Shown here: in pieces, positions 4,983-63,889 of the stretch
How the letters are laid out: every line of letters starts with the position of its first letter
How positions within the stretch are numbered: the stretch's first letter is position 1
IMG/VR virus record: IMGVR_UViG_3300027797_000011
DNA from: a virus
Taxonomy: Duplodnaviria > Heunggongvirae > Uroviricota > Caudoviricetes
DNA length: 64,000 nt
Direction: 5' to 3' (one strand)
The notes under the pieces: model-generated
Told to the model about the DNA's origin: nothing
Seen by the model: only the letters and a program-made list of their open reading frames with translations
Database searches by the model: none
Position numbers and translations under genes: made by a program

Positions 4983-7247
4983 TTAAACAGTTTCTGCTTC
5001 GGTGGTGTTTTTAACTGATAGCACTTCTACGTAATTAATACACAGAGTATCTTTATCAACAGTTAATTCAACAACTCCGCCATCAACTAGTTTTCCAAAT
5101 AGGATTTCTTTACTCAATGGTTTCTTGATAAACTCATCAATAGTACGTTGTAGTGGACGAGCACCCATTTTACTGTCAAATCCTTTCTTGATTAACAGCT
5201 CAACAGCGTCTGCGTTAAGTTTAACATGAACGTTTCTATCTTTGAGTAGCACATTGAGCTCATCAATAAACTTCTTAACAATTTTAATCATTGTTGTTTG
5301 GTCTAACTTACCAAAGCGGATAATACCGTCCAATCGATTGCGGAATTCAGGAGCAAAGAATTTGTTAATAGCATCCTTAGGATCGCTGTCTCGTTCTAAA
5401 CTACCAAAACCTACGCTATTCTTTTCAGAATCTGCCGCACCTAAATTACTGGTCATAATAAGAATAGCATTGCGTCCGTCTGCTTTCTTACCATTACTAC
5501 CGGTAATAAATCCGTTGTCCATTAATTGAAGCATAATGGTTAACACATCGGGGTGCGCCTTTTCAACTTCGTCTAACAACAGAACACAATTAGGATGTTC
5601 TTGTAGTTTAGTAATCAATTGACCTGCATTGTCATCAAATCCAATATAGCCCGGAGGAGCACCAATAAACTTAGCAATAGAGTGTTTCTCTTGGAATTCG
5701 CTCATATCAAAGCGTACTAGTTCTACACTCATGCCTAAAGCAAGTTGTTTAGCAACTTCTGTTTTACCAACACCGGTTGGTCCTGCAAACAAGAAACTAC
5801 CTACTGGTTTATTAAGAGCTTTTAACCCTGCCTGTGCAATATAGATTTTATCAAGCAATGTTTCGATCGCTTTTTCCTGTCCATATACTTTACTACGCAG
5901 ATTTTTATCTAGGTCTTTAAGATTACGACTTTCTTTTGATGCAATTTGATCTAACGGCAACCCTGTAATCTTACTTACTTCAAATACAATTTCATCATGG
6001 TCTACTACACCATTATCTTCGTCTTTAACCTTGAAGCGGGCACAGGCACAATCAATTAGGTCGATTGCTTTATCTGGTAATTTCTTGTCGCTCATGTACT
6101 TAACGCTATACTTAACCGCATCCACTATTGCCTGCTTGTTAATCTTAACGCCATGGTATTTTTCGTAATATTTTTTAAGCCCCATAAGGATCTTAATAGC
6201 AGTTGCTTCGTCGGGCTCGCCCACCGTGACACGTTGGAACCGACGCATTAGGGCACGATCCTTTTCAAAGTGCTTACGGAATTCTTCCCACGTGGTACTA
6301 GCAATAACTTTAATACTTCCTTTACCCAATACAGGTTTAAGCATATTACTCATATCGTTACTGCCACCACCGACTGCCCCAGCACCGCTCATCATATGAG
6401 CTTCGTCAATAAACAAGATACACTTCTTTTTCTTTTCTAGCGCACTAATAACCATCTTTAGGCGTTCTTCAAAGTCTCCACGATACTTGCTTCCGGCAAG
6501 CATGGCACTAATATCCAAACTATAAACTGTATGATCTTTAATAAACTTAGGAACGTTGCCTTCTTCAATCCTACGTGCTAGACCTTCTGCAATAGCAGTC
6601 TTACCTACACCAGGATCTCCGATCATCATAACATTAGCCTTGGTTCTACGTGCAAGAACAAGAGTAATTTCTTCAATTTCTTTTTCACGGCCAATTACCG
6701 GATCTATTTGTTTAGCCTTAACTTTAGCAGTTAGACTTGTGCAATATTGCACAATGATTTTTTCTAAATGTCTGTTACTAACTTCTTCGGAATCTATATC
6801 ATCTGTATTAGATCCTTCCTTGTTTAGAAAATCAATAAACTTGTCTTTATCAATTTTAGCTTTACGCATAAAATACAATGCATGGCTTTTCTTTTCACTG
6901 AATATGCTAAGGAAACAATCAATAGGTTCAATCTTAGATCGTCCGCTAAACAATACTTGTGTAAATGCTCTATTCAACATTCTTTCCATAGAATGTGTTT
7001 TCTTTGGTTTATCATCAAATTCTGCATTAATAATTTCTTTTAGTTCTTTATTTAGAAAGATTTCGATATCTTTCTGTAGTAAACTAACTTCGGATCCGTA
7101 ACTTGTTAAAAGTTCTTTAAACTTTTCATCTTCTAATAGACTATGCAAAAAATGTTCTAGTGTAAGAAACTCGTGTTTATACTTTGTAGCTAATTCTACA
7201 GCTCGTTCAAAGATTACAGTTAAACTTTTATCTGGTTCTAACATCAA
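4983..7247 (-). CDS. clpA: ClpA-like AAA+ unfoldase with two AAA+ modules
   Basis: 754 aa. Clp N-domain at the N-terminus. Walker A motifs GDPGVGKT and GPTGVGKT. Length and architecture match ClpA rather than ClpB. Confidence 0.85.
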   Translation of the reverse strand: MMLEPDKSLTVIFERAVELATKYKHEFLTLEHFLHSLLEDEKFKELLTSYGSEVSLLQKDIEIFLNKELKEIINAEFDDKPKKTHSMERMLNRAFTQVLFSGRSKIEPIDCFLSIFSEKKSHALYFMRKAKIDKDKFIDFLNKEGSNTDDIDSEEVSNRHLEKIIVQYCTSLTAKVKAKQIDPVIGREKEIEEITLVLARRTKANVMMIGDPGVGKTAIAEGLARRIEEGNVPKFIKDHTVYSLDISAMLAGSKYRGDFEERLKMVISALEKKKKCILFIDEAHMMSGAGAVGGGSNDMSNMLKPVLGKGSIKVIASTTWEEFRKHFEKDRALMRRFQRVTVGEPDEATAIKILMGLKKYYEKYHGVKINKQAIVDAVKYSVKYMSDKKLPDKAIDLIDCACARFKVKDEDNGVVDHDEIVFEVSKITGLPLDQIASKESRNLKDLDKNLRSKVYGQEKAIETLLDKIYIAQAGLKALNKPVGSFLFAGPTGVGKTEVAKQLALGMSVELVRFDMSEFQEKHSIAKFIGAPPGYIGFDDNAGQLITKLQEHPNCVLLLDEVEKAHPDVLTIMLQLMDNGFITGSNGKKADGRNAILIMTSNLGAADSEKNSVGFGSLERDSDPKDAINKFFAPEFRNRLDGIIRFGKLDQTTMIKIVKKFIDELNVLLKDRNVHVKLNADAVELLIKKGFDSKMGARPLQRTIDEFIKKPLSKEILFGKLVDGGVVELTVDKDTLCINYVEVLSVKNTTEAETV

Positions 7248-31479: not shown

Positions 31480-32412
31480 TTACACTATTTTTCGGAAATA
31501 GTCAATCGTTTTTTGTAATCCAGTTTCTAAATCAATTTTTGGTTCCCATTGTAAAACTTTTTTTGTTTTGTTTATATTTGGCTGTCGTTGTTTTGGATCA
31601 TCTTGCGGCAACGGCATTTGCAGTATTTGGCTCTCTGTTCCTGTAAGTTTAATAACCATCTCGGCCAAATCAAACATTGTAAACTCTCCAGGATTTCCTA
31701 AATTCAACGGACCAATCATTTCGTCATCCGTATTCATCATAGCCATCATTCCGTCAATAAGATCGTCTACATAACAGAAACTACGGGTTTGTTGACCACT
31801 TCCGTATACTGTTATGTTTTTTCCTCGCAATGCTTGTACAATAAAGTTACTTACTACACGACCATCATCAGTAGCCATACGGGGCCCGTATGTATTAAAG
31901 ATACGAACAATCTTTGCATTTACGTTATGTACTCTATAATAGTCGTAAAATAATGTTTCGGCGGCACGTTTGCCTTCATCGTAGCAACTACGTATACCAA
32001 TTGGATTTACATTCCCCCAGTACTCTTCGGGCTGTGGATGTACTTTGGGATCACCGTAAACTTCGCTGGTGCTAGCCTGTAAGATTCTAGCACCTGTTCT
32101 TTTAGCAAGGCCTAATAAATTATAGGCGCCTAAAACATTTGTTTTCATCGTATGAATAGGGTCCCACTGATATGCCTGAGGACTAGCAGGACATGCTAGG
32201 TTATAGATCTCGTCTACTTCTACATATAACGGAAAACAAATATCTTGACGAATTACTTCAAAGTTTTTATATTCGAGTAAATGTTCGATGTTTTTCTTTG
32301 CACCTGTAAAATAATTATCTACGCAAAGAACATGATGTCCTTCGGTTACCAATCTATCACATAAGTGACTACCGAGAAACCCGGCACCGCCGGTTACTAA
32401 AACTTTTTTCAT
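31480..32412 (-). CDS. UDP-glucuronate decarboxylase / UDP-xylose synthase-like NAD-dependent epimerase-dehydratase
   Basis: [21 protein letters not shown] Rossmann start, and YNLACPASP. Start taken at the internal Met (32410-32412), where an upstream 44-aa ORF ends in an ATGA overlap. Confidence 0.8.
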
Positions 32413-32543
32413 TCTTTTCCTTTTGGTGGGACAATGCCGTACTGAGAATATAACCAATTTAAAAAATGTTCAATTTCTACGTTTGGATACGGGTACGCTT
32501 TGTATGCTGTGATTACTCTTTCTAACCAATCTTTATCTATCAT
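32409..32543 (-). CDS. small ORF (44 aa) translationally coupled to the UXS gene
   Basis: By-eye translation [44 protein letters not shown]; stop overlaps the UXS ATG. Confidence 0.35.
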
Positions 32544-40679: not shown

Positions 40680-40753
40680 TGGAGCGGGATAGCGGAATCG
40701 AACCGCTGACTTGAACTTGGAAGGATCTCGTTTTACCATTAAACTAATCCCGC
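40680..40753 (-). tRNA. tRNA-like gene, Gly(UCC)-type loop CUUCCAA but with a non-pairing anticodon stem. Possible pseudo-tRNA.
   Basis: Acceptor GCGGGAU/AUCCCGC, T-arm AGCGG-UUCGAUU-CCGCU, encoded CCA. The anticodon stem AGAUC/GUUCA does not pair. Related to tRNA-Gly at 63468..63543. Confidence 0.45.
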
Positions 40754-50717: not shown

Positions 50718-50749
50718 GATATTTTATCCTTGTTATCTGCTATTTAGTC

Positions 50750-50773
50750 AAAAAAAAGCCCACCGAAGTGGGC
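50750..50773 (-). terminator. rho-independent terminator of the tmRNA coding piece
   Basis: Minus sense: GCCCACUUCGGUGGGC followed by U8. Confidence 0.7.
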
Positions 50774-50779
50774 TTGGTG

Positions 50780-51110
50780 GTTTCTGTTACGAGGTATTTC
50801 CTACCCTAGGCGGCTGTTAGGCGGCCAATGCGAACTGTTCGTCGTTTGCGTTTACGTGTTGTGCTTCTACGACCGAGTTACCCCAATCCTACGGGTTCTG
50901 CTTTCCCGAGCTGTCCACTCATTTACTTGTTGCCCTGTCGAAACTATGCATCCCCATCAAAAGCATACTATTTTAGTCTGAGCGCATCACATGCGACTTT
51001 TTAACTCAACGACCTAGTATGCTTATGGTGGAGATGGGGGGATTCGCACCCCCGTCCAGAACACTTTTCTCTTTGCTTCATACAGCAATAACCTACAGTA
51101 TATATTTATT
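50780..51110 (-). ncRNA. ssrA: circularly permuted two-piece tmRNA (ssrA). Acceptor piece at about 51026-51110 ending CCA; intervening hairpin 50956-51025; coding piece 50955 down to about 50780. Tag ANDEQFALAA.
   Basis: Minus sense. The 3' end GGACGGGGGUGCGAAUCCCCCCAUCUCCACCA has a T-arm and acceptor. The 5' start GGGGAUGCAUAGUUUCGACAGGG lies 70 nt downstream of the CCA in transcription order. Acceptor GGGGAUG/CAUCUCC has a G3-U70 pair. Tag frame GCA AAC GAC GAA CAG UUC GCA UUG GCC GCC UAA. The spacer forms an AAGCAUACUA/UAGUAUGCUU stem. Confidence 0.8.
51075..51092. repeat. 18-bp direct repeat copy 1 (GCTTCATACAGCAATAAC)
   Basis: Identical copy at 51567..51584; extended imperfect similarity of about 34 bp. 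Confidence 0.8.
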
Positions 51111-51446
51111 CAGAGGAGTTGTCAATAACCTGTTACGCCAAAACTCTCGGGCCGCATCGCTTTGTTCATCGCTTGGAACTAGTACTCCGTCAATCTCACT
51201 TTGCACAATGTCGTACATCACCGTGGCAACACCCGTTCGTTTGTAACCGGAATATACTTCAATGTGATGCGGATACCATTTGTTATCTCTATCATACTTG
51301 AAAACTGCTGTGGAGATTTTTTTAGACCGAACTTTGTTTTTAATTACGGATACAGTGAATATAAGACTGCATTTATTTTTGGTGTAATCGTAAACAACTT
51401 GTTCTTGAGTTTTAATCAAAGAACAGACCAACTGATAGTCTGACAT
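51093..51446 (-). CDS. small GNAT-family acetyltransferase (117 aa)
   Basis: HIEVYSGYKRTGVATVMYD matches the GNAT acetyl-CoA-binding motif A (R/Q-x-x-G-x-G/A). Confidence 0.55.
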   Translation of the reverse strand: MSDYQLVCSLIKTQEQVVYDYTKNKCSLIFTVSVIKNKVRSKKISTAVFKYDRDNKWYPHHIEVYSGYKRTGVATVMYDIVQSEIDGVLVPSDEQSDAAREFWRNRLLTTPLNKYIL

Positions 51447-59855: not shown

Positions 59856-59932
59856 TGGTCGGTGTGACACGATTCGAACATGCGACCACTGCGTCCCAAA
59901 CGCAGAGCTCTACCAAGCTGAGCTACACACCG
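59856..59932 (-). tRNA. tRNA-Pro (anticodon GGG)
   Basis: Acceptor CGGUGUG/CACACCG; anticodon arm CUGCG-UUUGGGA-CGCAG; T-loop UUCGAAU; CCA encoded. Confidence 0.8.
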
Positions 59933-60171
59933 TTATTCTTCTTTCTAATTTTCATTCCAACATAAGTTCCGCAAAACGCACCTGCCATTGCCGGAATCAT
60001 CAACCAATGGTTAGTTGTATAATTTATAACTGCTATGCTTCCTAATATATAACATGCTACTGACCAAAAACTTGCTCCCAGCACATTGTCATTTGCTACA
60101 CATCGCAGATAGTAAGTATACACAACGTCAAGTAAAAAAATTGCAAAAAATGTTGTAATGTAATCTATCAT
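59923..60171 (-). CDS. small polytopic membrane protein (82 aa)
   Basis: ORF track; 2-3 TM helices. Confidence 0.45.
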   Translation of the reverse strand: MIDYITTFFAIFLLDVVYTYYLRCVANDNVLGASFWSVACYILGSIAVINYTTNHWLMIPAMAGAFCGTYVGMKIRKKNNGV

Positions 60172-60175
60172 ACTA

Positions 60176-60250
60176 CTGGTACCTGGTCACGGTTTCGAAC
60201 CGCGGACCTTCGCCGTGTAAAGGCGTTGCTCTACCCCTGAGCTAACCAGG
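60176..60250 (-). tRNA. tRNA-Val (anticodon UAC)
   Basis: D-arm UAGCUCAGGGGUAGAGCA; anticodon loop UUUACAC; T-loop UUCGAAA; CCA encoded. Confidence 0.8.
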
Positions 60251-60257
60251 CAATATC

Positions 60258-60494
60258 TTATTCGTCAGTTTTTTCTGCAATATATTCTGCTAGTCTAGCT
60301 TGATATTGTTCTTCTGTCAAGCCGTGCCAACCGCAACAATTACCAGTTGGACTGCGGCCGCAACCGCATGTACCTTTTTTCATTTCTTCTACACTTGGTG
60401 ACATATTTCTCTTTCCAAAAATTGCATCATAGTTATTGCCAAACTTTTCTTGGCTAACACTATATGGACGAGGTCTACTTCCTTTAGACATCAA
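60258..60494 (-). CDS. SEC-C motif zinc-binding small protein
   Basis: CGCGRSPTGNCCGWHG resembles the SecA C-terminal CPCGSGKKYKxCHG metal-binding motif. 78 aa. Confidence 0.5.
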   Translation of the reverse strand: MMSKGSRPRPYSVSQEKFGNNYDAIFGKRNMSPSVEEMKKGTCGCGRSPTGNCCGWHGLTEEQYQARLAEYIAEKTDE

Positions 60495-60676
60495 TCACTT
60501 CCTACATCCGACTCAGTACGAGTCTTTTTCTCCCTGACGGGTTTAATCAACGATGCAAGTTCTGCTTGAACTGTACTACGTAAAAACTCTCCACGCTTAT
60601 GTGGATCAAGGATTTGTGCCGCAAATCGCTTTGCTTGTGAACTCATTTTGTAACTAGGACCTGGTTTAATATACAT
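60491..60676 (-). CDS. hypothetical protein (61 aa)
   Basis: ORF track. Confidence 0.45.
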   Translation of the reverse strand: MYIKPGPSYKMSSQAKRFAAQILDPHKRGEFLRSTVQAELASLIKPVREKKTRTESDVGSD

Positions 60677-60695
60677 TATTACCTCTTAAAAAAAT

Positions 60696-60785
60696 TGGCG
60701 GTGTGACTGAGACTCGAACTCAGAAGCCGGATTACGCCGACCGACAGATTAGCAATCTGCTCTAATACCATTATAGGACCACACC
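60696..60785 (-). tRNA. tRNA-Ser (anticodon GCU), type II
   Basis: Anticodon loop UUGCUAA; long variable arm CGGUCGGCGUAAUCCGGCU; T-arm CUGAG-UUCGAGU-CUCAG; CCA encoded. Confidence 0.8.
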
Positions 60786-60950
60786 AATAATTGATAGCAC
60801 TCGCCGTCTATGACAACGTGTCTATTTAGGAGTCCTGCGCTAACAGTTCCAAAGCATCTAACAGCAGTTATATTAGACTTCGCACCATGCCAGTGGATGT
60901 CGTGTAGTATATGCGTCCATATACGATACCTGCCGAGAGCTATCAATTAT

Positions 60951-61034
60951 TGGTGCCCCAGGTCGGACTCGAACCGACACGCCTTTCGACACTGGCTTCT
61001 AAGACCAGCGTGGCTACCATTACACCACCGGGGC
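60951..61034 (-). tRNA. tRNA-Leu (anticodon UAG), type II
   Basis: Acceptor GCCCCGG; anticodon arm CUGGU-CUUAGAA-GCCAG; long variable arm; T-arm GUCGG-UUCGAGU-CCGAC; CCA encoded. Confidence 0.8.
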
Positions 61035-61107
61035 AAAATTCAACAGGTTAATACTAGTTTAATGACCTAGCAGTCGCCATTTTTAAATCGCTGTAATTAA
61101 CCTAAAC

Positions 61108-61181
61108 TGGTTGCGGGTCCCGGAATCGAACCAGGATCTCGAGCTTATGAGACTCGTGAGTTACCGTTTCTCTAACCCGCG
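61108..61181 (-). tRNA. tRNA-Met (anticodon CAU) with C1-A72 mismatch (initiator-like feature; could also be Ile2/elongator)
   Basis: Anticodon arm CGAGU-CUCAUAA-GCUCG; T-arm CCUGG-UUCGAUU-CCGGG; acceptor CGCGGGU/ACCCGCA; CCA encoded. Confidence 0.7.
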
Positions 61182-61400
61182 ATAATTTTTACTTGCGTCT
61201 TTTTTGAGTTTTAACAAATAATCTTTTCCGATTTTTCCTTCTTCAATTTCTCGTAGGGCTGTAACAATTGGCCCACCTTTCTTACTTACCAAAGGCATGT
61301 GTCCCCGTGTTAATTCCCGGGCACGAATAGATGCAACTAATACTAGATCGTATCTATTACCAATTTGTTCAACTGCTAACTGACTTGTAATACGTGCCAT
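61161..61400 (-). CDS. rpoZ: DNA-directed RNA polymerase omega subunit (RpoZ)
   Basis: MARITSQLAVEQIGNRYDLVLVASIRARELTRG...VTALREIEEG aligns to E. coli RpoZ [33 protein letters not shown]...VIALREIEEG. 79 aa. Last about 20 nt overlap the tRNA-Met 5' end. Confidence 0.8.
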   Translation of the reverse strand: MARITSQLAVEQIGNRYDLVLVASIRARELTRGHMPLVSKKGGPIVTALREIEEGKIGKDYLLKLKKDASKNYRGLEKR

Positions 61401-61458
61401 TGTTTAATTCCTTTATGTATTGATTATACAGTAAATCTAATTTATTGTCAATACCTTT

Positions 61459-61532
61459 TGGTGCTCTAACGTAGAATCGAACTACGATTCCTGTCATACC
61501 AAGACAGTGTTCTTCCATTAAACTATAAGAGC
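61459..61532 (-). tRNA. tRNA-Thr (anticodon GGU)
   Basis: Anticodon arm CUGUC-UUGGUAU-GACAG; T-arm CGUAG-UUCGAUU-CUACG; CCA encoded. One acceptor mismatch at 6-67. Confidence 0.75.
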
Positions 61533-61735
61533 AATGATTGGTACCCCTAGGTACGAAAGCGGTAAATATTTGTATGAAGACATACGAAAGCGTTACCCCC
61601 GGAGGATTACACTTTCATCTATCATTACATGAGGGTGTCTGCATCGTTATGGTTCGAGATATCTACGATATAGAACTAACTGTGCGATATTTTACCAACG
61701 TCAACAAAGCACTTCGCTTTATCAATAATTTGTGA

Positions 61736-62668
61736 TTAGATTATTCCAACAGAGGATAATGTTGTAATTTTTCTAAGAGGCTTGCTTTGTACTTTTGGTT
61801 TGATATCTTCAACAAATGCGTCAAATTGATCAAACGGTATTTTATGTTCTTGACGTCCTTCACCGAAAAATTCCTGAACAATCATTCCTTCGGGACTTTC
61901 TAGAAAAAATATTTGTCCAAATTCATATTCATACGGAATCTTAAAATCCTTTCCGGCTAACTTTAGCACAATATTTTCTTTTATGTCTTTAATCATTTCT
62001 GTTAATGATTGTCTGGTATTGTCCCACATGCAATTTTTATAAGCAAAATTACTGTCAATTTCTTCAACAAAGTCAATAAAATCTTGATTTAACACACGTA
62101 ATAGTTTAAATTCATCTTCATACATGTGATCTGCAATCAAAATATTAACATTCTTAAGAGAAGTTCTTTGTTTAATTTCTCTCATAGTTTGTCTAATCAC
62201 TTGCAAGTATTCACCTTGAAACTCTTCATCAACTACTAGGTTGATTTTTAAGTTGGGAATATTCTTAGCAAAAAGTTCAATATTTTTAAAGTATTTGTCC
62301 GGTAACTTGTTATCTCTTAGCACTTCCATAAAGTGTAAACTGATTGTCATGTAAAACTTGTCTTTGTGCTCAAGACTATCAATAAATCTCTTATAGTGCC
62401 ATGTGCTTAGAGTACCGTTAGTATAGGTATATGTTTTTGCCTTCTCAGTCGCTTGATTTACTAGATGTTGAAATCCTTTAAGCAACAAGGGCTCACCACC
62501 ATTTAAAACAAAACAAGTTTCATCATGGTATAATTCTAAGAGTTTACCAACTTTAGATGTATAATAATTGAAAGGACGTACATCTTGATCAAAATAATTA
62601 TAACAATACTTGCAACCTATATTGCACTTTGTAAACAGTTGATATACTAAGCAGAGTTTCTTTTTCAT
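61736..62668 (-). CDS. radical SAM enzyme (unassigned subfamily)
   Basis: CxxxCxxC cluster CNIGCKYCY and glycine-rich VLNGGEPLL. Start moved to the internal Met (MKKKLCLVYQL) because the longer track ORF would run through the tRNA at 62726..62802. No C-terminal SPASM cysteines. 310 aa. Confidence 0.7.
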   Translation of the reverse strand: MKKKLCLVYQLFTKCNIGCKYCYNYFDQDVRPFNYYTSKVGKLLELYHDETCFVLNGGEPLLLKGFQHLVNQATEKAKTYTYTNGTLSTWHYKRFIDSLEHKDKFYMTISLHFMEVLRDNKLPDKYFKNIELFAKNIPNLKINLVVDEEFQGEYLQVIRQTMREIKQRTSLKNVNILIADHMYEDEFKLLRVLNQDFIDFVEEIDSNFAYKNCMWDNTRQSLTEMIKDIKENIVLKLAGKDFKIPYEYEFGQIFFLESPEGMIVQEFFGEGRQEHKIPFDQFDAFVEDIKPKVQSKPLRKITTLSSVGII

Positions 62669-62725
62669 GTTAAGCCTTATTGGTAACATTCTATTTATTT
62701 CTATTATCTTGGCCAGGACAAGTAA

Positions 62726-62802
62726 TGGTACCCCTGGGCAGATTCGAACCGCCAACCAACAGATTTTAAGTCTATCCGCACTACCAATTAGCGTACAGGG
62801 GC
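62726..62802 (-). tRNA. class-I tRNA with anticodon UAA (Leu anticodon, but only a 5-nt variable loop)
   Basis: Acceptor GCCCCUG/CAGGGGU, discriminator A, CCA. D-arm UACGCUAAUUGGUAGUGCG. Anticodon arm AUAGA-CUUAAAA-UCUGU. Variable UGGUU. T-arm GGCGG-UUCGAAU-CUGCC. Confidence 0.65.
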
Positions 62803-62872
62803 ATTGAATGGGCTTCTCACCCAATTGGCCCTAGACGGACTGTCGATAGTTCTCTTTCACACTATCCTGGTT

Positions 62873-62949
62873 TGGTACCTTCGGGCGGATTCGAACCCCC
62901 AACCACCTGCTTCTAAGGCAAGCCGCACTACCAATTAGCGTACGAAGGC
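62873..62949 (-). tRNA. class-I tRNA with anticodon UAG (Leu anticodon, short variable loop), paralog of 62726..62802
   Basis: Same D-arm UACGCUAAUUGGUAGUGCG; anticodon arm CUUGC-CUUAGAA-GCAGG; variable UGGUU; acceptor GCCUUCG/CGAAGGU; CCA encoded. Confidence 0.65.
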
Positions 62950-63108
62950 ATTATAAGGCGGGAGCCCGACTATCTTGTTGTTAGCAAGCCTCATCGGATT
63001 GTCTCGAACACAAGAGTTTATACTACCTTATAGTCGTCTGCGGTGTCACATGGCCAACCAAAGCCATGCTAGACTATCTGGGACTCATTGTGTCGTCTAT
63101 CCCTAAAC

Positions 63109-63185
63109 TGGTACCCCGTGTCTGATTCGAACAGACAGCCAACTCCTTTTGAGAGAATCCGCACTACCAATTAGCGTAACGGGGC
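63109..63185 (-). tRNA. class-I tRNA with anticodon CAA (Leu anticodon, short variable loop), third paralog
   Basis: Same D-arm; anticodon arm AUUCU-CUCAAAA-GGAGU; variable UGGCU; T-arm GUCUG-UUCGAAU-CAGAC; acceptor GCCCCGU/ACGGGGU; CCA encoded. Confidence 0.65.
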
Positions 63186-63194
63186 ATAAAAACT

Positions 63195-63269
63195 TGGTCC
63201 GGCCTAGAAGAATCGAACTCCTATTCACAGGGTAGAAGCCTATTGTATTTTCCATTATACGAAAGCCGG
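63195..63269 (-). tRNA. tRNA-Arg (anticodon UCU)
   Basis: Anticodon arm AUAGG-CUUCUAC-CCUGU; T-arm AGGAG-UUCGAUU-CUUCU; acceptor CCGGCUU/AGGCCGG; CCA encoded. Confidence 0.7.
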
Positions 63270-63278
63270 AAATAAAAC

Positions 63279-63370
63279 TGGTACCAGCGGAGGGGATCGA
63301 ACCCTCTCAAGAACGCTAATCTGGCGCTAAAAGGCTTATAAGACCTCTCTGACTTCCAAGTCTCGCTGGC
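63279..63370 (-). tRNA. type II tRNA (long variable arm) with unusual anticodon loop CUUAUAA (apparent anticodon UAU); identity uncertain (Leu/Tyr/Ser-derived?)
   Basis: Acceptor GCCAGCG/CGCUGGU, A73, CCA. T-arm GAGGG-UUCGAUC-CCCUC. Variable-arm hairpin AGCGC..GCGUU. Non-standard D-arm. Confidence 0.5.
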
Positions 63371-63377
63371 AATAATT

Positions 63378-63466
63378 TGGCGGGGGGATGGTAGAATCGA
63401 ACTCCAACCTCGTTAAAAGTCCATCTGTTTTCAAGACAGCGCAGGGCCCAGCCCCGATAACCCCCC
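63378..63466 (-). tRNA. tRNA-Ser (anticodon UGA), type II, with imperfect T-stem
   Basis: Acceptor GGGGGG/CCCCCC, discriminator G; anticodon loop CUUGAAA flanked by CUGU/ACAG; long variable region; CCA encoded. Confidence 0.5.
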
Positions 63467-63467
63467 A

Positions 63468-63543
63468 TGGAGCGGGTAGCCGGTATCGAACCGGTCTACT
63501 TCAGTTTGGAAGACTGATGTGTATCCATAAACACCTTACCCGC
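63468..63543 (-). tRNA. tRNA-Gly (anticodon UCC)
   Basis: Acceptor GCGGGUA/UACCCGC; anticodon arm UCAGU-CUUCCAA-ACUGA; T-loop UUCGAUA; CCA encoded. Confidence 0.75.
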
Positions 63544-63548
63544 ATAAT

Positions 63549-63622
63549 TGGTACTTCGTTGGAGAATTGAACTCCCATCTACGCCATGTCACGGCATTGT
63601 TCTGCCATTAAACTACCGAAGC
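63549..63622 (-). tRNA. tRNA-Val (anticodon GAC)
   Basis: Anticodon arm AUGCC-GUGACAU-GGCGU; T-loop UUCAAUU; acceptor GCUUCGG; CCA encoded. Two stem mismatches. Confidence 0.55.
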
Positions 63623-63630
63623 ATTATTTC

Positions 63631-63798
63631 TTTTCTTGTACTTTTCTAAGACTATCTTTCTTTACTAGACAATCTCGTTGTGTGCCATCTTTAAAAACTC
63701 GTAGATATTCTATGCCGTCTATTACACGGATGTCTTTGGTGTCTTTACAATAGAATTTTTCTTTGTTAAAGACATTTTCAAAAAATAATGTTTTCATG
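63631..63798 (-). CDS. small hypothetical protein (about 55 aa)
   Basis: By-eye translation MKTLFFENVFNKEKFYCKDTKDIRVIDGIEYLRVFKDGTQRDCLVKKDSLRKVQEKK between two tRNAs. Confidence 0.35.
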
Positions 63799-63813
63799 AT
63801 CTACTCCTATATA

Positions 63814-63889
63814 TGGCGTCCCTAACGAGATTCGAACTCGTGTACCCAACGTGAAAGGCTGGTGTCCTAGGCCTCTAGACGATAGGGAC
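63814..63889 (-). tRNA. tRNA-Glu (anticodon UUC)
   Basis: GUCCCUAUCGUCUAGAGGCCUAGGACACCAGCCUUUCACGUUGGG...UUCGAAU...UAGGGACGCCA. Near-identical architecture to E. coli tRNA-Glu. Confidence 0.85.

Follow-up and report, generated by a model that had tools for sequence, protein, structure and literature searches.

Which amino acid is carried by a tRNA that has a leucine anticodon and no long variable arm? This question is raised by three neighboring genes in a 64,000-nucleotide (nt) stretch of viral DNA (Caudoviricetes; IMG/VR record IMGVR_UViG_3300027797_000011), the whole of which is referred to here as the window. The three genes carry the leucine anticodons UAA, UAG, and CAA, and each has a variable loop of 5 nt rather than the variable stem-loop of more than 10 nt that is the textbook mark of class II tRNAs. 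An earlier note on this DNA, made from the sequence alone, had described them as three paralogous class I tRNAs built on one scaffold, with a common D-arm, 5-nt variable loops, G1·U72, A73, and an encoded CCA end, and had pointed to a class II tRNA-Leu(UAG) in the same window. All of this, coordinates included, was borne out by ARAGORN, Rfam, and alignment (Table 1). Our analysis leads us to conclude, with a probability of roughly 80%, that these genes encode three functional type I tRNA-Leu isoacceptors, i.e., bacterial-style tRNA-Leu in which a 5-nt loop replaces the long variable arm. Judged from their sequences, they would receive leucine from the leucyl-tRNA synthetase (LeuRS) of the host.

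The three genes have the canonical features of elongator tRNAs. The cloverleaf is intact, with a 7-bp acceptor stem that starts with G1·U72, a D arm, a 5-bp anticodon stem, and a T arm with the GTTCRA motif; the T stem of the UAG copy has one G·G mismatch. The U8-to-G26 stretch (TACGCTAATTGGTAGTGCGG) is identical across all three in alignment. The anticodon loops (CUUAAAA, CUUAGAA, and CUCAAAA for the UAA, UAG, and CAA copies, respectively) are of the canonical 7 nt, with U33 and the purine A37, and the variable loops, in the same order, read UGGUU, UGGUU, and UGGCU. All three thus combine a leucine anticodon with a variable loop of 4 to 5 nt, the structural definition of a type I tRNA-Leu. 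Rfam model RF00005 covers each gene from end to end (E = 6e-11 to 3e-9; gathering score, 29). The CAA copy was missing from a 24-kb scan at the gathering threshold and was recovered, with a score above 29, in a 901-base scan at an E-value threshold. ARAGORN gives the same anticodons as those read in the earlier note, and the unambiguous 5-bp stems leave no alternative register. A shifted register (anticodon UUA or UCA, which would make the genes suppressors) is excluded, as these stems fix the 7-nt loops. The anticodons read sense leucine codons and not stop codons. As for the G1·U72 wobble, it is frequent in several A73 isotypes of these phages (65% of class I Leu, 57% of Val, 49% of Lys, and 42% of Ile tRNAs) and, being common across isotypes, is not specific to the leucine family.

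A missing arm could also be what remains of a class II tRNA-Leu gene that has suffered a variable-arm deletion and is now decaying. Apart from the missing arm itself, nothing speaks for such a pseudogene origin. In 79 distinct 77-nt class I tRNA-Leu relatives, 97.3% of the stem cells are paired, and changes on both sides were found at 18 of the 20 pairs. The covariation score was 0.762, compared with 0.198 in shuffled alignments (none of 500 reached the observed value) and at most 0.164 when the partners were slid by 1 to 3 columns, and covariation was present in all four helices, the acceptor and anticodon stems included. None of the 89 unique class I Leu sequences departs from a variable-loop length of 5 nt. 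Exact copies of the genes occur in other viral contigs (4 of the UAA copy, 2 of the UAG copy, and 15 of the CAA copy), orthologues were found across 76 viral-contig stretches, and the Rfam scores are typical of those of the other tRNAs in the array. This architecture reappears, strongly covarying, in hundreds of relatives and so lies far beyond chance. The three genes are genuine tRNAs under structural selection, and the combination of conservation and compensatory change refutes the idea of decaying genes, to which we give practically no credence.

With regard to the amino acid, the requirements of the bacterial synthetase are informative. E. coli LeuRS relies on A73, the Levitt pair A15-U48, G18G19, A20a, and tertiary pairs that join the D-loop to the T-loop, while the anticodon and the long arm are dispensable; indeed, an arm-less minimal tRNA-Leu is still charged (PMC9976931). 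The complete leucine identity set is present in the three genes: A73, U8-A14, A15-U48, G18G19 after a 4-nt alpha region, A20a within a 3-nt beta region, and U54-A58. A73, A15-U48, the 5-nt variable loop, and CCA are found together in 89 of 89 unique class I Leu-anticodon tRNAs, and the retention of A15-U48 in 100% of this phage family would fit recognition by a LeuRS of the E. coli type. Among 1,043 unique tRNAs from the related stretches and the window, the combination of A73, A14, A15-U48, and a 3-nt beta region with A20a was carried by 90% of class I and 91% of class II tRNA-Leu but by only 29% of Tyr, 3% of Arg, and 2% of Pro (1/50) tRNAs and by 0% of all other isotypes. The earlier note had offered, as one of several options, that these tRNAs might be LeuRS substrates by virtue of A73 alone. 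A LeuRS substrate is indeed the option that fits best, although not through A73 alone, as the whole E. coli-type set has been kept.

The distribution of anticodons on this body points the same way. The exact 20-nt D-arm was found in 76 stretches of IMG/VR viral contigs, where ARAGORN placed it within 106 further tRNAs, each of 77 nt. When the three genes of the window are included, 109 of 109 exact-D-arm tRNAs have a leucine anticodon (52 CAA, 31 UAA, 25 UAG, and 1 CAG), so that both leucine codon boxes are represented. A single body bearing anticodons from both leucine boxes, and no others, is what would be predicted for the substrate of a synthetase that does not read the anticodon. A more generic pattern, consisting of the Leu-type D-loop AATTGGTAG, A35, and the class I spacing to the T-loop, also permits Ile, Met, Val, and Phe anticodons. 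Nevertheless, among the matches listed, leucine anticodons were present in 118 of 119 tRNAs from bacterial genomes and in 106 of 106 tRNAs from 105 further viral loci (224 of 225 overall).

The alternative that the earlier note had raised is a mismatch between identity and anticodon: the tRNAs would be charged by a synthetase other than LeuRS, and UUA, UUG, and CUA would be reassigned, or deliberately mistranslated, during infection. The suspicion originated in the missing class II arm. It finds some further footing in our body-type models (see below), which place two of the three bodies of the window marginally nearer to Thr than to Leu, and in a nematode precedent, the class II nev-tRNAs with anticodons for neither Leu nor Ser (PMC3333845). 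We therefore asked what the three codons encode in two conserved phage proteins, set against independent references. The phage ClpA (positions 4983-7247) was compared with E. coli ClpA (full length, 44% identity), and the phage UDP-glucuronate decarboxylase (31480-32457) was compared with human UXS1 (PDB 2b69; 58% identity). These references replaced the large-database relatives of the phage ClpA, all of which were at least 78% identical, probably belong to the same phage group, and are not independent; an identical ClpA led back only to JGI metagenome 3300027659. With the two proteins pooled, the reference residue was leucine opposite 17 of 30 TTA, 13 of 19 TTG, and 11 of 21 CTA codons (52 to 68%), compared with 14 of 29 (48%) for the control codons CTT, CTC, and CTG and 5% for non-Leu codons, and leucine was the commonest partner residue for each of the three. 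As TTA, TTG, and CTA lie opposite leucine at least as often as do control leucine codons, bulk reassignment is not supported.

The requirements of other synthetases also speak against this reading. ThrRS requires G35 and U36. AlaRS requires G3·U70, and SerRS requires the long arm and G73; the three genes carry C3-G70, A73, and no long arm. More generally, the anticodon bases are major identity elements for most other synthetases (PMC9976931), which would be expected to reject UAA, UAG, and CAA. Together with the leucine-only anticodons of all 109 family members on one body, as expected of an anticodon-blind LeuRS substrate, these considerations make charging with another amino acid highly improbable in our view.

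Several observations nonetheless weigh against assignment of these genes as functional tRNA-Leu. Taken singly, A15-U48 and G1·U72 also occur frequently in tRNAs for other amino acids in these AT-rich phages, and specificity resides only in the combination of elements. We also emulated an isotype-model check with per-isotype hidden Markov models. These were trained on the remaining phage tRNAs after masking of the anticodon and removal of the variable region, had a cross-validated accuracy of 86%, and gave an ambiguous answer. By these models, the class I Leu bodies scored best as class II Leu in 43 of 89 cases and as Thr in 27 of 89. For the genes of the window, the best model was Leu for the UAA copy and Thr for both the CAA copy and, by a small margin over Leu, the UAG copy. 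Nearest-neighbor body identity weakly favors class II Leu (0.709, versus 0.684 for Thr). A further difficulty is that the type I tRNA-Leu(CAA) of Streptomyces coelicolor is not leucylated in vitro by E. coli LeuRS (PMC6614811); hence, not every bacterial LeuRS takes every arm-less tRNA-Leu. Finally, the window holds a class II tRNA-Leu with the same anticodon as the class I UAG copy, so the latter is not strictly required for decoding.

Type I tRNA-Leu is not without precedent. A case proven by biochemistry is tRNA-Leu(CAA) of S. coelicolor, a type I tRNA with a 5-nt variable loop that is leucylated by the single LeuRS of that organism; the same study describes nearly all bacterial tRNA-Leu as type II and the S. 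coelicolor enzyme (ScoLeuRS) as the only prokaryotic LeuRS known for charging both types (PMC6614811). The statement in the earlier note that bacterial tRNA-Leu are type II was therefore too strong. Like the phage genes, the S. coelicolor tRNA combines a leucine anticodon with a 5-nt variable loop and coexists with class II tRNA-Leu. In that system U8-A14 matters for charging, and 5 nt, the length of the phage loop, is the minimum for good charging (PMC6614811). The two differ in other respects. The S. coelicolor variable loop ends with C48 (A44-C45-A46-G47-C48), whereas every phage copy ends it with U48, the partner of A15; ScoLeuRS does not use A73 as an identity element; and the actinomycete gene is a solitary one in a high-G+C chromosome, whereas the phage has a set of three isoacceptors within an array. 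Recognition in S. coelicolor may, moreover, rest on lineage-specific features of its LeuRS, such as the leucine-specific domain.

Another close counterpart is E. coli tRNA-Leu(UAA), encoded by leuZ, for which a crystal structure in complex with LeuRS is available. The phage genes share with it the acceptor ends (GCCC.../...GGGUACCA), G1·U72, A73, U48, the T-loop and anticodon-loop features, and the D-loop AAUYGGUAG (A14 A15 Y16 Y17 G18 G19 U20 A20a G21) on a 3-bp D stem. The variable arm of leuZ is 15 nt, compared with 5 nt in the phage genes, and the alignment shows this difference as a single clean 10-nt gap; in addition, position 13-22 is G·A in leuZ and U·U in the phage genes.

Among cultured phages, the vibriophage KVP40 has tRNA-Leu-1 (CAA) and tRNA-Leu-2 (UAA), both 77 nt long, with encoded CCA (Leu-2 also with G1·U72), and situated in a tRNA array. 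The Streptomyces phage Coruscant has a 75-nt tRNA-Leu(UAA), again in a tRNA array. In all three, the variable loop measures 5 nt, the D-loop is of the AAUUGG type, and position 73 is A73. All of these are annotated plainly as tRNA-Leu. They are only ca. 70 to 80% identical to the genes of the window, do not share the D-stem sequence, and come from phages of Vibrio and Streptomyces, respectively; moreover, KVP40 has two isoacceptors, with no UAG copy in the stretch that we examined. A literature search on aminoacylation of the KVP40 tRNAs found nothing. Two other systems can be compared. Animal mitochondrial tRNA-Leu likewise has a leucine anticodon on a class I body, although it is served by a dedicated mitochondrial LeuRS and has a relaxed structure; a human mitochondrial tRNA was not charged by ScoLeuRS (PMC6614811). 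A short-loop tRNA-Leu(UAG) from a mycobacterial tRNA cluster resembles the phage genes in that it belongs to an accessory cluster and coexists with a regular long-arm copy at another place in the genome, but it is mentioned only in passing and without biochemistry (PMC6582537).

The earlier note had called such a set of tRNAs unusual, which our survey does not bear out: type I tRNA-Leu is abundant in viral contigs and in Actinomycetota and is annotated in KVP40. In the 76 stretches plus the window, class I tRNAs with a leucine anticodon outnumber class II ones by 160 to 52, a ratio to be read with the fact that these stretches were chosen for carrying the exact D-arm. Some of the class I leucine scaffolds in those stretches carry instead the D-arm GUGGCGCAAUUGGUAGACGC, which is typical of ordinary bacterial tRNA-Leu. 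Among the bacterial matches listed for the generic pattern are many tRNA-Leu(CAA) genes that stand alone, in Bifidobacteriaceae and further Actinomycetota; still others lie within tRNA arrays of cyanobacteria, Planctomycetes, Saprospiraceae, and other groups. A solitary class I tRNA-Leu(CAA) with the variable loop GCAGU, whose commonest sequences have no encoded CCA, appears to be the norm in Bifidobacteriaceae and occurs in many other Actinomycetota. Type I tRNA-Leu of the S. coelicolor kind is thus far more widespread than PMC6614811 implies. Our literature search turned up no discussion of phage-encoded type I tRNA-Leu, even though GenBank records of cultured phages carry such genes. What is new here is therefore these phage members; type I tRNA-Leu itself is already known, a widespread but little-discussed kind of tRNA.

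With respect to function, the simplest role for these genes is to provide decoding capacity for A/U-rich codons, as phage tRNA arrays usually do. The three tRNAs would be transcribed as part of the minus-strand array, which we presume to be cotranscribed, and processed by host enzymes. Host LeuRS would then attach leucine to them; an enzyme of the E. coli type ignores the anticodon and the long arm and senses A73 and the shape of the corner formed by the D and T loops. The charged tRNAs would decode UUA, UUG, and CUN as leucine and so supply the A/U-rich leucine codons that dominate in a phage with a G+C content of 39%. TTA, CTA, and TTG make up 34, 19, and 17%, respectively, of the leucine codons of the window (70% together), and with wobble the three class I anticodons can cover all six leucine codons.

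A role outside translation may also be imagined, in which the RNAs serve as decoys or sponges for host factors (e.g., anticodon nucleases) or have a regulatory or priming function. The redundancy with the class II tRNA-Leu(UAG) of the same array could be taken in this sense, and PMC10264068 links phage tRNA arrays to antidefense functions. However, conservation extends to all that charging and decoding require (A73, CCA, the identity set, U33, A37, and the 7-nt loop), covariation extends over the acceptor and anticodon stems, the anticodons match the leucine codons most used by the phage, and we saw no sign of a decoy role in the sequences. We regard a nontranslational role as very unlikely.

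A somewhat different possibility, which would add to the decoding role rather than replace it, is that arm loss serves in counterdefense: leucine-charged tRNAs without an arm might escape host toxins and nucleases that act in an arm-dependent manner (AbiEii or MenT-type nucleotidyltransferases being candidates) and so keep leucine decoding alive. A 2026 preprint suggests, by analogy with MenT3, that the abortive-infection toxin AbiEii prefers class II arms, and PMC10264068 indicates that phage tRNAs can evade tRNA-targeting defenses through sequence changes. The preponderance of class I over class II tRNA-Leu in the related stretches (the 160 and 52 counted above) and the potential coverage of six leucine codons by three anticodons would suit such a purpose. 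Moreover, among these phages the arm has been lost only in leucine tRNAs, tRNA-Ser and tRNA-Tyr having retained theirs. SerRS depends on the long arm. Leucine, in contrast, is the class II isotype whose bacterial synthetase can do without the arm (PMC9976931), and if leucine tRNAs alone can shed the arm without losing their synthetase, this would explain why only they did so. If the idea were true, the three class I isoacceptors of the window would amount to a self-sufficient, defense-proof set for leucine decoding. The case is nevertheless circumstantial, as no defense system is known to be blocked in this way. Arm-less tRNA-Leu is the normal state of a solitary chromosomal gene in many Actinomycetota, where an antidefense logic fails, and the window itself retains a class II tRNA-Leu(UAG). 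Neutral loss of the arm under deletion bias, permitted by the tolerance of LeuRS, would be sufficient and explains the data equally well. We therefore consider counterdefense unlikely, if worth bearing in mind.

How the three isoacceptors arose can be judged in part from their relatives. Outside the anticodon arm, each gene is 94 to 97% identical to copies with the same anticodon in other contigs but only 78 to 87% identical to the other two types, and the acceptor and T stems bear a signature peculiar to each type. A few members of the family do combine the acceptor of another type with a different anticodon. By these comparisons, the split into three isoacceptors predates the divergence of these phages, and the recent anticodon shuffling proposed in the earlier note is not supported for this genome.

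The wider setting is that of a large phage. The minus strand of the window holds 82 of 92 approximate open reading frame (ORF) calls, and the proteins encoded include a ClpA homologue, a T4-type clamp loader (54% identical to its counterpart in the Pseudomonas jumbo phage PA5oct), and a large protein with matches to families of virion structural and baseplate proteins. The window also holds about 20 tRNAs and a permuted tmRNA. The leucine genes lie in a dense tRNA array, and additional tRNAs, together with the tmRNA, are found between 40680 and 56844. The spacers between the three genes (62803-62872 and 62950-63108) showed no significant folding (z = -1.4 and -1.3, respectively), and promoter- and terminator-like matches between 59500 and 64000 occurred in numbers near those expected from shuffled sequence, with nothing to single out. 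The radical-SAM gene directly downstream of the three tRNAs (61736-62680) could be assigned to no specific family and showed no link to tRNA; among the subset of window ORFs that were scanned, none encoded an aminoacyl-tRNA synthetase. A search of GenBank phage DNA with a 1.1-kb query found no relative of the region, the sole match being the neighboring tRNA-Gly, and a search with a 77-nt query returned largely generic tRNA similarity. One match to the latter, in Citrobacter phage NM4.3, has the anticodon CAU and is uninformative with respect to leucine.

Table 1. Features of the window discussed in the text
Feature	Coordinates	Strand	Support and details
Type I tRNA-Leu, anticodon UAA (reads UUA; UUG via wobble)	62726..62802	-	ARAGORN; Rfam RF00005, 54.9 bits; 77 nt, G1·U72, A73, encoded CCA
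Type I tRNA-Leu, anticodon UAG (reads CUA/CUG, perhaps every CUN codon)	62873..62949	-	ARAGORN; Rfam RF00005, 51.8 bits; 77 nt, G1·U72, A73, CCA
Type I tRNA-Leu, anticodon CAA (reads UUG)	63109..63185	-	ARAGORN; Rfam RF00005, 48.9 bits; 77 nt, G1·U72, A73, CCA
Conventional class II tRNA-Leu(UAG)	60951..61034	-	ARAGORN; Rfam, 54.2 bits; 84 nt, variable region of 13 nt
Dense tRNA gene array	59856..63889	-	ARAGORN: 14 tRNAs, all on minus strand, all with encoded CCA; small ORFs interspersed
tRNA, anticodon UAU	63279-63370	-	92 nt, anticodon loop CUUAUAA, A73, G1·U72, very short D arm, 5-bp extra arm
Class II tRNA-like gene, anticodon UGA	63382-63466	-	85 nt, anticodon loop CUUGAAA, G73, CCA
tRNA-Gly(UCC)	63468-63543	-	A8 and U14 (usual U8-A14 tertiary pair reversed), U73
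tRNA(CAU)	61108-61181	-	C1·A72 mismatch atop acceptor stem, hallmark of bacterial initiator tRNA
Permuted (two-piece type) tmRNA	50726-51118	-	Tag peptide ANDEQFALAA; Rfam tmRNA_permuted, 119.1 bits; beta_tmRNA, 117.9 bits
Second tRNA-Gly(UCC)	40680-40753		

Some of the neighboring RNA genes deserve comment in their own right. The permuted tmRNA may hint at a host of the betaproteobacterial type, and from the tRNA(CAU) gene the phage appears to have an initiator tRNA of its own. The tRNA-like gene with the anticodon UGA was missed by ARAGORN and went unreported by the Rfam tRNA model, its best Rfam match being tRNA-Sec at 43.2 bits (gathering score, 47); its probable identity is tRNA-Ser(UGA), with arms of unusual geometry. 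The tRNA-Gly(UCC) next to it is 88 to 91% identical to tRNA-Gly of T4-like Aeromonas phages and is the only part of the region with matches among GenBank phages.

Just upstream of the three leucine genes lies a tRNA with the anticodon UAU in a canonical loop, the variable region of which forms an extra arm with the 7-nt loop CAGAUUA. A long variable arm that contains AGAU is present in each of the 36 UAU tRNAs (19 unique sequences, representing three or more unrelated scaffolds) from the first set of related viral stretches, compared with only 1 of 137 control long-arm tRNAs with AGAU in the arm. In an independent second viral set, a long variable region was present in 8 of 13 unique UAU tRNAs, mostly with NGAUUAG or AGAUAAU. 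GAU is the anticodon of the major tRNA-Ile, and ATA makes up 27% of the isoleucine codons of the window. One possibility, offered as speculation, is that the arm mimics an anticodon stem-loop and so lets IleRS accept an AUA-reading UAU tRNA without lysidine. A literature search found no description of an anticodon-mimic arm on UAU tRNAs.

For the window itself, identification of the three genes as type I tRNA-Leu removes a suspected anomaly of the genetic code: they can be annotated as tRNA-Leu, and the standard translation table is safe to use. More generally, the rule that tRNA-Leu is class II cannot be relied on in phages or in several bacterial lineages, which is relevant to tRNA annotation pipelines in which a conflict of isotype with structure raises a flag. 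A signature made up of the D-loop and its spacing predicts a leucine anticodon in all but 1 of 225 tRNAs among the matches listed, and the existence of this family bears on which LeuRS enzymes accept arm-less substrates.

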